From positions 330,001 to 362,000 of the forward strand of contig OZ245819.1 in the NCBI GenBank assembly GCA_965228485.1: DNA of 32,000 bases, in the 5' to 3' direction. Origin of the DNA: Candidatus Saccharimonadota bacterium (GTDB lineage Bacteria > Patescibacteriota > Gracilibacteria > UBA4473). The position numbers and the translations under genes are program-made. The notes under the pieces are model-generated. The model was given only the letters and a program-made list of their open reading frames with translations, made no database searches and was not told the DNA's origin. This document shows positions 4,296 through 19,141 of the stretch, piece by piece (positions within the stretch are counted from its first letter, which is position 1; every line of letters begins with the position of its first letter).

Positions 4296-5129
4296 ATGAC
4301 GATTGATCACGAACCGAAATCACTAGAAATCAAACGATTTCCTCACCAATCACATGAAACTGAAGTTCCAGTTATTATCGATGAAGGCTTAAATGCCCAA
4401 TCTAGACTAAAAATTGGAACTAAGTTATATGTTAAGCCAGAATTAAGGCACCAACTTGCTCCTGATAATAGGAAAACACTGCCTCTTTATTATGAAGTTG
4501 TTGGCTTTTCTTACGACTCTTCTGATACCTTTGATCAATCTAATGAGGATATACAAAACAAGTATCGAAGAATTGGAACTCGAGGATTGTGTATTTACGC
4601 CAGAGCTGTAGGAGAAACCAAACTCGATTACAGTCGTTCTATTCGTGAAAATTTAGGTGAGGGAGGCGTCTATAAACTAGCTAACTTTGGTGAAGGACCT
4701 GAAGATTTAGGTGATTTTTTATCACTCGATGCTCCGGGAAATGTGCAAAATGAAATAGAGGCAACAAGTAGATATACTCTTGTCTGTCTAGAAACAGACG
4801 ATCCAACGGTCAGAATTTTATTAGAAGTTTTTCAGGGAGCCGAACGGCTTTCCCAGAATGAAAATATTTCAAAACAAGAAGTAGAAGCACTCGTCCATAA
4901 GCTAGAGGCTATTACAAATGTGCAATCTGGACAACATAATCGAGACGCCTGGGAGCGAGTGTTTGAAGCAACACTTAAAGCCTTTGAATTACAAGGAAAA
5001 ACTTTTGATGCTATTGGTATAGATAACCAAGCCATTCAACTTCTCAGAGACGGACGCCGAAATTTAGCTGGATTTAACACTAGAGAAGTTCAGTCTGTAA
5101 TTGAGATTATGCTATCAGAACTAGAGTAA
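4296..5129 (+). CDS. Hypothetical cytoplasmic protein, 277 aa, no family recognised
   Basis: Long ORF with host-like composition, an ATG start and an upstream consensus promoter. Its 3' end overlaps the convergent uppP by 23 nt. Confidence 0.65.
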   Translation: MTIDHEPKSLEIKRFPHQSHETEVPVIIDEGLNAQSRLKIGTKLYVKPELRHQLAPDNRKTLPLYYEVVGFSYDSSDTFDQSNEDIQNKYRRIGTRGLCIYARAVGETKLDYSRSIRENLGEGGVYKLANFGEGPEDLGDFLSLDAPGNVQNEIEATSRYTLVCLETDDPTVRILLEVFQGAERLSQNENISKQEVEALVHKLEAITNVQSGQHNRDAWERVFEATLKAFELQGKTFDAIGIDNQAIQLLRDGRRNLAGFNTREVQSVIEIMLSELE

Positions 5130-5886: not shown

Positions 5887-5931
5887 GACTAGAACTATAA
5901 TAAAAATATTTAAAAAATCTATAAAGAAGTA

Positions 5932-5957
5932 GGACGAGAGGTGTGACCCTCTCGTCC
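5932..5957 (-). terminator. Hairpin terminator closing the small basic-ORF transcription unit
   Basis: 10-bp GC-rich stem ggacgagagg / cctctcgtcc with a 6-nt loop. On the minus strand it is followed by the U-rich tract UACUUCUUUAUAGAUUUUUU. Confidence 0.5.
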
Positions 5958-5974
5958 CGAGAGATCACGAGATA

Positions 5975-6121
5975 TTACTTCCGTCTACGACCTTTGTCGG
6001 GCTTTTTCGGACGTTTTTTGCCAGCATGAGGTCCAGACTTGGACACCCAACCGCCTTTTCGGGCGGCCTTGGTTCCACCACCAGGTCTTCCCCGGCGGCC
6101 TGAATGATTTCTTGTGGCCAT
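5975..6121 (-). CDS. Small, highly basic protein (48 aa), hand-called
   Basis: ATG at 6121 is preceded by AAGGA 6 nt upstream. Product: MATRNHSGRRGRPGGGTKAARKGGWVSKSGPHAGKKRPKKPDKGRRRK, ending in TAA at 5977-5975. It is below the track's size cutoff. A competing 72-aa ORF in another frame exists at 5965..6183. Confidence 0.35.
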   Translation of the reverse strand: MATRNHSGRRGRPGGGTKAARKGGWVSKSGPHAGKKRPKKPDKGRRRK

Positions 6122-6124
6122 GTT

Positions 6125-6265
6125 TTATCCTTGCCTTTCAAGCTGTCGGCGTTTACTCCGTCCCGGTTTGCTATTGCGGGCACGCCCGCATTTGCCTTTT
6201 ACGATGGGACGAGGCCCACCGCTTTTTTTCCGTCCACGGGGTTCACGCTGCTTGCTTTTTGTCAT
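6125..6265 (-). CDS. Small, highly basic protein (46 aa), hand-called
   Basis: ATG at 6265 with GGAG 11 nt upstream. Product: MTKSKQREPRGRKKSGGPRPIVKGKCGRARNSKPGRSKRRQLERQG, ending in TAA at 6127-6125. It is in the same frame as the 5975..6121 ORF, separated only by TAA-AAC. Confidence 0.35.
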   Translation of the reverse strand: MTKSKQREPRGRKKSGGPRPIVKGKCGRARNSKPGRSKRRQLERQG

Positions 6266-6461
6266 AATTAGACCGCTCCTGTCGGATAGATTATGCCGTC
6301 TTACTCCCCCACCAGAGATGCGGCTATAAATCTTTGCTAAAAAAACTTATAGCCACATCTAAGGGTTCAGTCGTAACGAAAATGAAAAGATCGTCGTGGC
6401 TTACGGTTCTTCTTAAGCATTAGGATAAAGCCTACGCTTAAAAAATGTCATAAGCATGTGG

Positions 6462-6490
6462 ATTATAACATTTATTTTGAAATTTTACAA
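6462..6490 (-). promoter_or_regulatory. Sigma70-type promoter driving a ~190-nt leader plus the small basic ORFs
   Basis: The minus strand reads TTGTAA (6490-6485), 17-nt spacer, perfect TATAAT (6467-6462). Confidence 0.55.
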
Positions 6491-6511
6491 ATATAATATT
6501 TATTTTAAATT

Positions 6512-6554
6512 AAACAAAAAAGGAGCCGAGACAGTAAACAAATACTGCCTCGAC
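6512..6554 (-). terminator. Rho-independent terminator of the 211-aa Arg-rich gene
   Basis: The minus strand reads GTCGAGGCAGTA-TTTGTT-TACTGTCTCGGC followed by TCCTTTTTTGTTT, about 40 nt after the stop at 6591. Confidence 0.7.
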
Positions 6555-6590
6555 TAACCCCTTTCAAAACTGTTTCAGGTCAAAAGCTGA

Positions 6591-7226
6591 TCAAGCGATC
6601 TGGCTCCCAAGCACCGGCAAAAGTGCAAAAATGGAGACCGTGCTCGCCAAAAGCATCATCGATATCGCCTGTGCGCCCCGAGGGAAACTCAGTGCGAAAA
6701 GGAAATTGCCCCTGAACGACTGAGGGAACCGCAACTGCAGTTCGATCTGGTTCGCCAGCATGTTACGCGCATAGCAAGCCAGGTCATACAGCACCTGACG
6801 ATCCCTCGCCACTGGTTCCCAACGTGCCGCCATAGGACAGCACGCCGCAAAGGAGGCCATTCTGGATTTGCTCTCTGCATAACGACGACGACCGGTCGGT
6901 ACGACATCGCAAGGCCCCACGAACTTACGTTCGGCGCCATAGTTGCAATGAGCAATCTGCCCCCGTTTGAATTTCCTCGGTGTGAAATTTTTGGTGGATT
7001 TGACGATTTTTCCCATGGCGATGGCGCGAGCCTTGCCATAGCGAGCATGGCGCCGTGCCGCAGCACGACGAACGCCAAACGGTTTCTTGTTCGGGCTGAT
7101 CAGGCGATAAGCGTTCTGCTTCGCCTTCCCAAATTTAACCCCTCCTCTCCCACGTCTGGAACGGTTTGAAGAGCCTTCTAGGCCCATTTTTTTAGCAACT
7201 TTGTTGCCGAGTCCTCTTCGAGACAT
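6591..7226 (-). CDS. Arg/Lys-rich protein with a C-terminal hydrophobic helix, 211 aa, no family recognised, compositionally foreign
   Basis: ATG with GAGGA 7-8 nt upstream. The N-terminal ~100 aa are extremely basic (MSRRGLGNKVAKKMG...RSRRGRGG...RRAAARRHARYGKARA). A Cys-containing core (HCNYG...GPCD...AACCP) follows. The C-terminus AISMMLLASTVSIFALLPVLG is TM-like. Codons are rich in CTG/GCG/CGT and the stop is TGA. Confidence 0.6.
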   Translation of the reverse strand: MSRRGLGNKVAKKMGLEGSSNRSRRGRGGVKFGKAKQNAYRLISPNKKPFGVRRAAARRHARYGKARAIAMGKIVKSTKNFTPRKFKRGQIAHCNYGAERKFVGPCDVVPTGRRRYAESKSRMASFAACCPMAARWEPVARDRQVLYDLACYARNMLANQIELQLRFPQSFRGNFLFALSFPRGAQAISMMLLASTVSIFALLPVLGSQIA

Positions 7227-7550
7227 TGTTCTATCCTCATTGATTTTAATTTTTGCCTGTAGCTTTTAAATGCTTCAGACTGCTCGTGACATCGACTTCC
7301 TCCCAAAAGGCAATCGACATCATAACAGCCTGAAACGATATTAAACAGTATAGTCTGAAAGGTCTCACTTCTCTTGTAAATGGAACTCTCTCAATCCTAG
7401 AAAGATAAGAAAAAACACGAAAATACAACAAAAATGAAGCGAATCAGACTATTTTAAAGCAACAAAATTTCAAAGATCGGTTATCAAATGCATTAACTTA
7501 TTAGTTAACTTGACTCTCCAGTAAATATTAATGCAAATTTAACCTATTTA

Positions 7551-7580
7551 ATAAAAAACTGATATTTTGTAAAGAATATC
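7551..7580 (-). terminator. Weak AU-rich terminator hairpin after the 7591..8388 gene
   Basis: The minus strand reads GAUAUU-CUUUACA-AAUAUC followed by AGUUUUUU, immediately after the stop. Confidence 0.35.
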
Positions 7581-7590
7581 CTATTAAAAA

Positions 7591-8388
7591 TCATTTATCT
7601 AGATCGATATCAATCCCCCCTGTATCATCGAGCTCTTTCTCTATTTCTGTATCATCAAGATTATCAAAATTTTTCTTTTGGAAGGTTTTTTTAACCACCT
7701 TTTTTGGTGCAGCAATTACGTTTTCAACTACCTCAGCCACTTCATCTGGGGCTTCTTCTGTAACCACAGGTCTTTTATATACCACTCTATTTGGAGCTCC
7801 ATCATCCCCAACATGCCGTTGAACCATATTGCTCAGCAACCCTTTAAGGGCTGATTCCTCTGTAAAGTTTTTATTATCCAAATAATTTTCTCGGTAAGTT
7901 TCAATAATTTTAGCGGTTCTCCCTGGGCGACTCAATCGAGCAATCAAGTGAGCATCTCCTCCATTTACCTTACTCAGTATTAAATTCCCATAGTTTAATA
8001 AAAAAGACCTAAACCCCAACCTCTCAACCGCAATTTCATCGAGGTTATGAAAATCAATTCGAGTAGAGCGACGTACAAAGAACTTCGGCCATTCAATAAT
8101 AATCAAGCTCTCATTGGTCATTACAAGAGCATTCACATACCAAAAAAACACTGGCCCCAAAGAATGAATAACTCCAAACACCAGAAGAATCTGCCAAACA
8201 TAATTTAGATCAAACCACATTCGTTTTTCAAAATTATAGGCTGGATAGAAAAACCAAAAGGCCCCTACAAGAAGAGCCCAAAGCACTACTCTTAATAAAA
8301 ACGATCTTCCCACAAAAAAGATAGGCTTTCTAAAAACCTTTATTACCCGCTCATCATCTTCTAAAAAACTTGAAAAACCTAATGCCAT
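7591..8388 (-). CDS. Membrane protein with a bacterial PH (YdbS/YdbT-like, bPH_2) domain and a charged C-terminal tail
   Basis: Two N-terminal TM helices are followed by LVMTNESLIIIEWPKFFVRRSTRIDFHNLDEIAVERLGFRSFLLNYGNLIL, which fits the bPH_2 pattern. This is the only host-type gene here that ends in TGA. Confidence 0.6.
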   Translation of the reverse strand: MALGFSSFLEDDERVIKVFRKPIFFVGRSFLLRVVLWALLVGAFWFFYPAYNFEKRMWFDLNYVWQILLVFGVIHSLGPVFFWYVNALVMTNESLIIIEWPKFFVRRSTRIDFHNLDEIAVERLGFRSFLLNYGNLILSKVNGGDAHLIARLSRPGRTAKIIETYRENYLDNKNFTEESALKGLLSNMVQRHVGDDGAPNRVVYKRPVVTEEAPDEVAEVVENVIAAPKKVVKKTFQKKNFDNLDDTEIEKELDDTGGIDIDLDK

Positions 8389-8492
8389 ACTTCAATTCTA
8401 AATCAGAAGTAAAAAATACAAAAATATTATTTAATTCTTGATTTGGTATTTTCGATTTTCAATTCTTTTTTTTTATCTATTATTTCTGCGAT

Positions 8493-18733: not shown

Positions 18734-18762
18734 TTGACAAAATACTCATTCTTGATTACAAT
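18734..18762 (+). promoter_or_regulatory. Near-consensus sigma70 promoter with no protein gene downstream
   Basis: TTGACA (18734-18739), 17-nt spacer, TACAAT (18757-18762). The next plus-strand CDS is 870 nt away. Confidence 0.6.
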
Positions 18763-18768
18763 GCTCTG

Positions 18769-19141
18769 AACACTTCGCTTAGAAATTACAACAAAAACAA
18801 GCCAAAAGTGTTACACAACGAGACAGGGAAATAAATTGTTCTTTCACACATACAACACCGCGGAGAGGATCGAGCTAATGGTCTTACCAGACTCAGCTTA
18901 AAATAATTAGACAAATATAAAGCTCTTGAGCGCTTTAGTCCGTTTGTTCGATTCTCTCCGCTTTGCGATGAGGTTTCCAGGGCCTTAACCACTCTGAAAA
19001 TCCCCTCTCACAAAACGGTTGAGACGAAACGCTAGTCTTTGATCAAAAAAGATATTTCAATTAAGAAATAACTTAAAAAAGACATCTCTAGTAATAGAAA
19101 TGACTAAAAAACAAAAGACATTCCAGAATGAAATGCCTTTT
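18769..19141 (+). ncRNA. Candidate structured non-coding RNA (~370 nt), class not recognised
   Basis: The predicted start lies just after the 18734 promoter. The GC-enriched core at 18855-19045 has a long-range helix, CGGAGAGGATCGAGC (18860-18874) pairing with GTTCGATTCTCTCCG (18946-18960), enclosing local hairpins. The end is at the hairpin 19117-19137 plus UUUU. There is no credible ORF. Confidence 0.35.
19104..19141. terminator. Bidirectional terminator hairpin
   Basis: 8-bp stem gacattcc / ggaatgtc(minus strand: GGCAUUUC-AUUCU-GGAAUGUC). On the minus strand it is followed by UUUUGUUUUUU, and on the plus strand by UUUU. Confidence 0.6.

Follow-up and report, generated by a model that had tools for sequence, protein, structure and literature searches.

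A GC-rich island encoding very basic orphan proteins at a variable chromosomal slot in a patescibacterial genome

Introduction

The genomes of the Candidate Phyla Radiation (CPR), or Patescibacteria, are tiny and rich in unknown genes, and how these bacteria gain genes and express them is poorly understood. Here we consider a locus within a 32,000-nt stretch of contig OZ245819.1 (positions 330,001 to 362,000; hereafter the window), from a genome of the gracilibacterial branch, in which an island of GC-rich DNA lies between the gene uppP and a gene for a membrane protein of 265 amino acids (aa). The island contains an open reading frame (ORF) of 211 codons and two much smaller ones, A and B, all three with extremely basic products. 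A preliminary description, made from the letters alone, had drawn attention to the island and offered a horizontally acquired cassette, a viral remnant or an assembly chimera as candidate origins. What is this island, and what kind of gene pool might have supplied it? The reading that we favour, with a probability of roughly 0.55, is that of an accessory module drawn from an exchangeable pool of genes with foreign-type composition and placed in a hotspot specific to the lineage.

Results

The island departs from its surroundings in composition, codon choice and translation signals

GC content is 38.6% over the whole window, and only two segments, 5901-6360 and 6521-7240, reach 50% in sliding windows of 200 nt, which bears out the abrupt compositional break that had been described. 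Within the island GC content is 0.53-0.57 over 6600-7200 and 0.55 over 6000-6300, compared with 0.29-0.42 in the flanks; the two blocks are separated by an AT-rich gap of ~35% GC, and the highest value in any 500-nt bin of the window outside the island is 0.456. A recount of two 60-nt samples that had been counted by hand returned the same 35 G+C for 6841-6900, but 16 rather than 17 for 7441-7500.

We examined the 211-aa ORF in a recoding test, in which 2000 synonymous versions of it were generated from the codon frequencies of 22 host ORFs. The recoded sequences had a GC content of 0.44 overall and 0.29 at third codon positions (GC3), compared with 0.55 and 0.58 in the actual ORF (z ~10), so that amino-acid composition does not account for the GC anomaly of the island, and the codon usage earlier called atypical is still atypical once composition has been corrected for. 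The Arg/Gly/Ala-rich product explains about one third of the GC excess of this ORF, and the remainder lies in the choice of codons, with CTG, CAG, GGC, GCG and CGT favoured. GC contents at the first, second and third codon positions (GC1/2/3) are.55/.51/.58, where GC3 in host genes is.22-.34, and the mean log synonymous-codon probability is -1.52 as against -1.04 ± 0.05 for the 22 host ORFs. ORFs A and B deviate more weakly in the same test (z 2.5-3.9).

The island is also set apart by its translation signals. A GGAG, GAGG or AGGA core of the Shine-Dalgarno (SD) type stands upstream of all three island ORFs, but of just 2 of the 21 host ORFs scored in the window and, in the relatives described below, of 3 host genes out of 45. 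The lineage thus seems to initiate translation largely without SD sites, and it is this near absence that makes SD-bearing cassettes conspicuous. The 211-aa ORF ends in TGA whereas 17/21 host ORFs end in TAA, a difference that had been pointed out together with the clear SD site of this ORF. Gracilibacteria are known for genetic code 25, in which UGA is read as Gly. We rejected this alternative code here because in-frame TGA is absent from all 22 long host ORFs, which indicates that the standard code applies, that the TGA of the 211-aa ORF is a genuine stop and that TGA is a rare stop in this lineage.

The 211-aa protein and both of its neighbours have one record each in a collection of 15 billion proteins, on a contig of 1,295,315 nt. 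A search with uppP found one relative only, OZ246423.1, whose uppP is 71% identical; this is a 1.33-Mb metagenome-assembled genome that carries the label Candidatus Altimarinota (Gracilibacteria, Patescibacteria group).

The 211-aa ORF is almost certainly a protein-coding gene

Structured RNAs classically show up as GC-rich islands in AT-rich genomes, and for this reason the RNA reading was tested first. Comparison with Rfam 15 (OLE, GOLLD, ROOL, HEARO, riboswitches and others) returned one tRNA only at the gathering threshold and nothing but noise at a permissive threshold, and the corresponding slots of the relatives were negative as well. Folding z-scores were -3.0 for 6515-7240 and -6.6 for 5925-6455, owing mostly to leader hairpins and terminators.

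Several results speak for coding. In 3000 shuffles of 6560-7260 the longest ORF had 209 codons, fewer than the 211 observed. An exhaustive HMMER search of 1.84 billion cluster representatives found exactly two homologues, P0004 (178 aa; E 2.5e-11) and P0005 (209 aa; E 1.5e-9), and no more were found by a profile search of 5.8 billion proteins or by scans of JGI metagenomes and IMG/VR. Both homologues lie on contigs of ~1 kb. Finally, similarity is seen at the level of protein: the sense frame was best in tblastx (E 4e-18 and 3e-11), an antisense echo (E 1.5e-10) being a product of the Arg/Ala-rich codons, and blastn similarity was confined to the non-coding leader and terminator, with none inside the ORF. 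GC content differs among the three homologous ORFs (44%, 55% and 59%), and their N-terminal ~110 residues share SPNKK, RRxAARR, AIAMGK and GQIAxCNYGSE. Taken together, these results indicate that the 211-aa ORF almost certainly encodes a protein, with a conserved N-terminal domain and a C-terminal half that appears to evolve fast.

The layout of this protein agrees with what had been described. The conserved N-terminal domain of ~110 aa is basic and helical (K+R 30% in residues 1-100; isoelectric point (pI) of the whole protein 11.6), and is followed by a variable, Cys-containing middle (4 of the 5 Cys within residues 101-170) and a hydrophobic C-terminal helix (last 41 residues; grand average of hydropathy (GRAVY) 1.18). 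An AlphaFold2 (AF2) model built from the three sequences is unreliable, with a mean predicted local distance difference test (pLDDT) score of 46; three N-terminal helices in it score 55-71.

Two transcription units carry structured leaders and recur on a second contig

The island resolves into two transcription units on the minus strand, each closed by an intrinsic terminator (Table 1), in line with the two units proposed earlier. The motif upstream of unit 1, TGAGACCTTTCAGACTATA, occurs once in the window where 0.02 matches are expected, and this region is probably the promoter or an operator of the unit. In unit 2, ORFs A and B have the size and protamine-like composition previously reported; their GC1/2/3 values are.60/.60/.45 and.57/.67/.43, respectively. 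Translational coupling of the two is probable, as only 3 nt separate the stop of ORF A from the start of ORF B. Their position-specific GC, and an equivalent basic ORF on the contig described next, suggest that both are probably real genes, on thinner evidence than the 211-aa ORF. No significant paralogy was detected among the three basic products.

The same module is present on L002, a metagenome contig of 1159 nt from ENA, in the order of the window: leader, homologous ORF, terminator, promoter, leader and small basic ORF. The last of these (MGTKNLPGRESKTPKK...) stands at the position equivalent to ORF A, behind a promoter of the form TTGACT-N5-TGTCAAA...TAGAGT and a leader of ~195 nt. On a further contig, L003, a second unit begins ~165 nt past the homologous ORF. 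The tail of the unit-1 terminator and its T-run are 85% identical between window and L002 over 33 nt. Leader 1 has in both the motif TGAGACCTTTCAGACTRTA and a hairpin of ~26 bp, and leader 2 a 20-bp hairpin just 5' of the SD region. RNAalifold predicted 35 pairs for leader 1, of which 9 have changes on both sides (main stem, columns 53-117: 25 pairs, of which 7 are changed on both sides), and 31 pairs for leader 2, again 9 with changes on both sides. Both leader alignments scored above all shuffled controls (leader 1, z=14.8; leader 2, z=6.9; 0/1000 shuffles as high in each case). The non-coding parts of the module are better conserved at the DNA level than its ORFs, and they probably act, at least in part, as RNA. 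An IMG/VR scan for the leader motifs gave four matches, all within one unrelated phage coding region.

Table 1. Features of the island and of its surroundings (window coordinates unless a relative locus is named).
Feature	Coordinates	Strand	Remarks
Unit 1	~7340 to 6520	-	Promoter region, 5' hairpin leader, SD, 211-aa ORF, terminator
Upstream motif TGAGACCTTTCAGACTATA	7349..7367	-	Same in L002 except one R position
-10-like TAATAT after TGAGACCTTTCAGACTATA	7343-7338	-	
Leader-1 hairpin, ~26 bp	7272..7336	-	At or near 5' end of unit-1 mRNA (predicted)
SD GAGGA	7234..7238	-	7 nt 5' of ATG
211-aa ORF	6591..7226	-	From ORF list, homologues, codon usage
Unit-1 intrinsic terminator	6524..6555	-	13-bp stem, then T-run
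Unit 2	~6455 to 5925	-	Sigma-70-type promoter, ~190-nt leader, ORFs A and B, terminator
Unit-2 promoter	6462..6490	-	TTGTAA, 17-nt spacer, TG-TATAAT (predicted)
Leader-2 hairpin, 20-bp stem	6316..6360	-	Inverted repeat ~50 nt 5' of small ORF A
Small ORF A, 46 aa	6125..6265	-	K+R 39%, pI 12, SD AGGAG upstream
Small ORF B, 48 aa	5975..6121	-	K+R 38%, pI 12, SD-like site
Unit-2 intrinsic terminator	5931..5958	-	11-bp stem, 7 G-C pairs
Further leader motifs			TGAGACCTTTCAGACT, GTTGTTCTTTCACGTTGG, GACAGGGA
265-aa membrane-protein gene	7591-8388	-	
GTTGTTCTTTCACGTTGGTTATA block in relatives	L010 8653-8675; L011 8529-8551; L012 6944-6966; L013 6954-6976; L014 6921-6943		

The same slot holds other GC-rich cassettes in relatives

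The 265-aa membrane-protein gene has at least 53 orthologues and anchors a conserved synteny, and through these orthologues we gathered nine relative loci (L008-L014, L019 and L020). Gene order is the same in all nine: FtsA, 5'-3' exonuclease, lepB, the 265-aa gene, a variable stretch, ribonucleotide reductase (RNR) subunits, uppP and maf. The island of the window takes the place of the variable stretch and of the RNR genes, which lie between the slot and uppP in 9/9 relatives and are not found at this position (5887-7590) in the window. None of the nine relatives has the island genes at the syntenic site, and this absence, together with the variability of the slot, makes the horizontally acquired cassette the best supported of the origins first offered.

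The variable stretch contains an M24 peptidase in L008 and two winged-helix-like ORFs in L009, and nothing was called there in L020. In the other six relatives (L010, L011, L012, L013, L014 and L019) it is occupied by orphan ORFs rich in GC (50-61%), which lie in the same orientation and have promoters of their own, long leaders and strong terminators. We found no similarity between these cassettes and the island genes of the window. They nevertheless have a composition in common: GC3 is 0.46-0.55 in the cassettes, compared with 0.38-0.40 in the host genes tested of L011 and L013 and 0.27 in those of the window; CTG, CAG and AAG are raised; and SD sites precede 8/13 cassette ORFs as against the 3/45 host genes. 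L019 mixes a 136-aa family otherwise seen in L010 and L011 with a ~60-aa family of L012 and a 200-aa family of L013, and cassette families are re-assorted between genomes. No match to the relatives' cassette proteins was found in IMG/VR.

The cassettes of L010-L014 are preceded by a conserved AT-rich leader made up of a palindromic promoter, an invariant block, a short hairpin, a long covarying hairpin and the motif CTGACAGGGAGGAA. The invariant block, GTTGTTCTTTCACGTTGGTTATA, is a 23-nt non-coding sequence, in loci where the identity of the flanking proteins to those of the window is only 50-60%; a JGI scan for it gave the L011 species and one chance match only. Except in L011, the block is followed by a short hairpin with a covarying stem, read by eye, and by ATCCAGTC (ATCTAG in L013), and L012 has a second copy of hairpin and ATCCAGTC at 8050-8078. 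L002 and L010-L014 have palindromic TTGACnnnnnnTGTCAAA promoters with which the unit-2 promoter of the window can be aligned, the link of the window itself to L010-L014 being weak. Likewise, a hidden Markov model (HMM) of the L010-L014 leader matched the unit-2 promoter of L002 (E=0.005) and gave no significant match in the window. Leader 2 of the window is thus weakly tied to this leader family, via L002 and by position only.

Two other features of these loci deserve mention. A 255-aa Arg-rich ORF in L011 (8697-9464, minus strand) runs antisense to the real cassette genes and is an artefact of GC-richness, a warning that long basic ORFs in GC-rich islands are untrustworthy unless backed by homology. 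In L012, a small GIY-YIG endonuclease gene (8160-8438, minus strand) separates the cassette slot from the RNR genes and may be a mobile gene of the homing type.

Database searches and composition-based predictions of function

The island proteins had no meaningful match in Pfam, PHROGs, PADLOC or the sequences of the PDB, in agreement with the earlier failure to recognise a family. In NCBIfam the 211-aa protein gave a single match below threshold, to the tRNA-binding NF007495 (E 0.071; 13.7 bits, cutoff 117), and ORFs A and B matched no family in Pfam or NCBIfam. Searches for viral or plasmid relatives returned nothing from PHROGs, from tblastn against phages and plasmids or from IMG/VR. Foldseek, given the poor structural model as input, returned only E > 1 against BFVD and an empty list against the PDB. 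Among the PADLOC models of anti-phage defence there were 0 matches for island proteins, and neither the locus nor the protein family turned up in the literature. Judged from its sequence, the 211-aa protein is a new protein family. The earlier label bPH was not borne out for the neighbouring 265-aa protein, which has no Pfam match at E <= 1 and none in NCBIfam or PADLOC.

The composition of the three products (K+R 30-39%, pI ~12) suggests that all of them bind polyanions, DNA or RNA, and the hydrophobic C-terminal helix of the 211-aa protein that it may be membrane-associated. Because long leader hairpins adjoin genes for Arg-rich proteins, it is a reasonable guess that the products bind the hairpins of their own leaders and so regulate themselves.

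Other observations in the window

Two further stretches of the window stand out. Between 18606 and 19634 lies 1 kb with only short, probably spurious ORFs (30-68 aa) and a promoter (TTGACA...TACAAT) near 18734. It includes, at 18812-18847, GACAGGGAA and TGTTCTTTCAC, both of which also occur in the cassette leader of the relatives, followed by a long-range stem, GGAGAGGATCGAGC...GTTCGATTCTCTCC. This stretch has no Rfam match and is a candidate for an unannotated non-coding RNA (ncRNA). On the other side of uppP, a 277-aa ORF with host-like codons (4296-5129, plus strand; GC3 0.24) is situated between uppP and maf, overlapping each of them. In L001, L008 and L011, the relatives in which both genes are whole or nearly so, uppP and maf abut or overlap directly. 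The 277-aa ORF, which has no family match beyond a weak one to DUF7369, looks like another lineage-specific insertion.

Discussion

Origin of the island

The preliminary description had missed the two remote homologues, the conserved leaders with their covarying hairpins, the other cassettes of the relatives and the RNR genes normally at the site. With these results in hand, we propose that a pool of genes of foreign-type composition, and not the core genome, would have supplied the island, as the same signature in GC3, CTG, CAG and SD sites marks unrelated cassettes in the slot of the relatives. This shared non-host signature makes an exchangeable pool the most likely source of the module. 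Genomic islands and horizontal gene transfer are frequent in Patescibacteria (PMC12455944). Once in place, unit 1 would be transcribed from its promoter region through the 5' hairpin leader and SD site into the gene for the large, very basic protein and on to the terminator, and unit 2 from a sigma-70-type promoter through its hairpin leader into the two coupled Arg/Lys/Gly-rich peptides, again as far as a terminator. The products would bind polyanions, possibly the hairpins of their own leaders, in which case they could exert feedback control. The large protein would be held at the membrane by its C-terminal helix.

Several results weigh against this proposal. We found neither an integrase nor a transposase, and no att site or flanking direct repeats; the only tRNA gene is ~4 kb away, and flanking or terminal inverted repeats are weak and at chance level. 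No donor was identified, and the orphan status of the proteins in 5.8 billion sequences disfavours capture from a well-sampled organism. Moreover, the GC enrichment ends at the ORF boundaries, the promoters and leaders beyond them being host-like and AT-rich (36%); with the excess limited to ORFs, a locus-specific or selection-driven cause fits as well as import does. The statistical link between the leaders of the window and the L010-L014 leader family is weak, and, the AF2 model being unusable, function is read from composition alone.

The main rival draws on some of these same points. It holds that the genes are native, fast-evolving genes of the lineage, whose GC-rich, SD-bearing coding regions are maintained locally, either by selection for mRNAs that are very stable or specially translated, with a 5' hairpin, a GC-rich coding sequence and a strong terminator, or by GC-biased gene conversion at a recombination hotspot. 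AT-rich, conserved leaders and promoters beside GC-rich ORFs fit it, as do the common signature of unrelated ORFs in six relatives and the lack of mobility genes and donors; the homologous ORF of L002, moreover, has a GC content of just 44%, with flanks of 34-39%. Against it, GC3 that is shifted by +0.3 and SD sites in an SD-poor lineage are the usual marks of another gene pool, the patchy occurrence and mosaic re-assortment of cassettes among relatives indicate exchange, and the module is absent at this site in the nearest complete genome. We regard a native origin as unlikely, if a serious contender. Quite improbable, in our estimate, is that the GC-rich blocks are structured non-coding RNAs in which the ORFs are incidental. 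The flat GC1/2/3 profile of the 211-aa ORF and the folding z-scores would suit such RNAs, and long spurious antisense ORFs such as that of L011 do occur in islands of this kind. Yet most of the folding signal comes from leader hairpins and terminators, no Rfam family was matched even permissively, the ORF exceeds every shuffle in length, homology is at the protein and not the DNA level, SD sites precede 3/3 ORFs, and the small ORFs have codon-position periodicity.

That the island is the remnant of a small virus or satellite, its basic N-terminal arm once serving in a capsid or as a J-like packaging arm, had been suggested by the extreme basicity of the products and might seem to gain from the ~1-kb contigs that carry both homologues. 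Such a length is however usual for contigs of that collection, and these contigs, read directly, have no terminal overlap. All viral searches (PHROGs, tblastn against phages and plasmids, IMG/VR, Foldseek against BFVD) were negative, and the genomic context is not viral: the neighbours are uppP and the conserved membrane-protein gene, with no replication or capsid genes nearby. We hold this origin to be very improbable. An assembly chimera or contaminant insert, as the abrupt compositional break and the single database record of the protein could suggest, is scarcely credible given that two syntenic host genes flank the island on a 1.295-Mb contig, that promoters, leaders and terminators are AT-rich and of host type, that the same architecture with its leaders recurs on the independent contig L002, and that assemblies of six further genomes, made in different projects, have analogous islands at this slot.

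In a lineage nearly free of SD sites, the locus is thus a reproducible site of compositionally foreign, SD-bearing orphan genes behind conserved structured leaders. Should the cassettes prove to be exchanged or under special regulation, the site could be a workable system in which to study how genes come and go, and how translation is controlled, in episymbionts that are uncultured; at least one new family of extremely basic proteins would be defined by it as well. If they are neither, the island is just another small accessory islet.

Comparison with known systems

Small proteins with a pI of ~12 and a composition rich in K, R, G and P include the chlamydial histone-like proteins Hc1 and Hc2 and the ribosomal proteins L34, L36, Thx and bS22. 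ORFs A and B resemble these protamine- or histone-like and tiny ribosomal proteins in size (46-48 aa), pI and composition, but differ from them in having no Pfam or NCBIfam match, in not being conserved across relatives, in lying in an accessory slot and in their atypical codons.

Integron cassettes offer a likeness at the level of the slot, as they too are variable, compositionally odd and mostly orphan ORFs at one chromosomal site and in one orientation. The hairpins of the island (ends GTTTCAG...CTGAAGC and AGATGTGG...CCGCATCT) are however without the RYYYAAC...GTTRRRY cores of attC sites, and each unit has its own promoter and terminator. No intI or other integrase was found in the 32 kb by Pfam and NCBIfam, with which part of the ORFs of the window were scanned.

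The leaders bring to mind lambda N and its nut sites and the Nus-factor leaders of rrn operons, in which a long 5' leader likewise stands before a small, Arg-rich and probably disordered first ORF, with strong terminators downstream. The boxA consensus of gamma-proteobacteria is GYTCTTTAANA (PMC5725501). In L010-L014, GTTCTTTCACG within the invariant block fits 8/10 specified positions of this consensus, which may not be that of the present lineage, and the short covarying hairpin comes next; leader 2 of the window has a degenerate GATCTTTTCAT that fits ~6/10, again by a gamma-proteobacterial standard that may not apply to the lineage. There is no sequence similarity to N proteins (0 matches in Pfam, PHROGs and NCBIfam). 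One might speculate that the slot 3' of the 265-aa gene is a dedicated expression site, in which a conserved nut-like leader, made up of palindromic promoter, boxA-like block and covarying hairpin, drives interchangeable GC-rich, SD-bearing cassettes and Arg-rich peptides act like N on the leader hairpins, as a system of cassette exchange and antitermination. We think this improbable; were it true, it would be a system of a kind previously undescribed in Patescibacteria.

Genomic islets, or ORFan cassettes, at chromosomal hotspots differ from the island in that it comes with no integrase, transposase, tRNA target, direct repeats or identifiable donor, and in that its GC excess is limited to the ORFs, with conserved AT-rich promoter and leader elements alongside the cargo. 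What the island has in common with them is atypical composition and codon usage, absence from the syntenic site of relatives, cargo that is orphan and varies from genome to genome, and families arranged as a mosaic.

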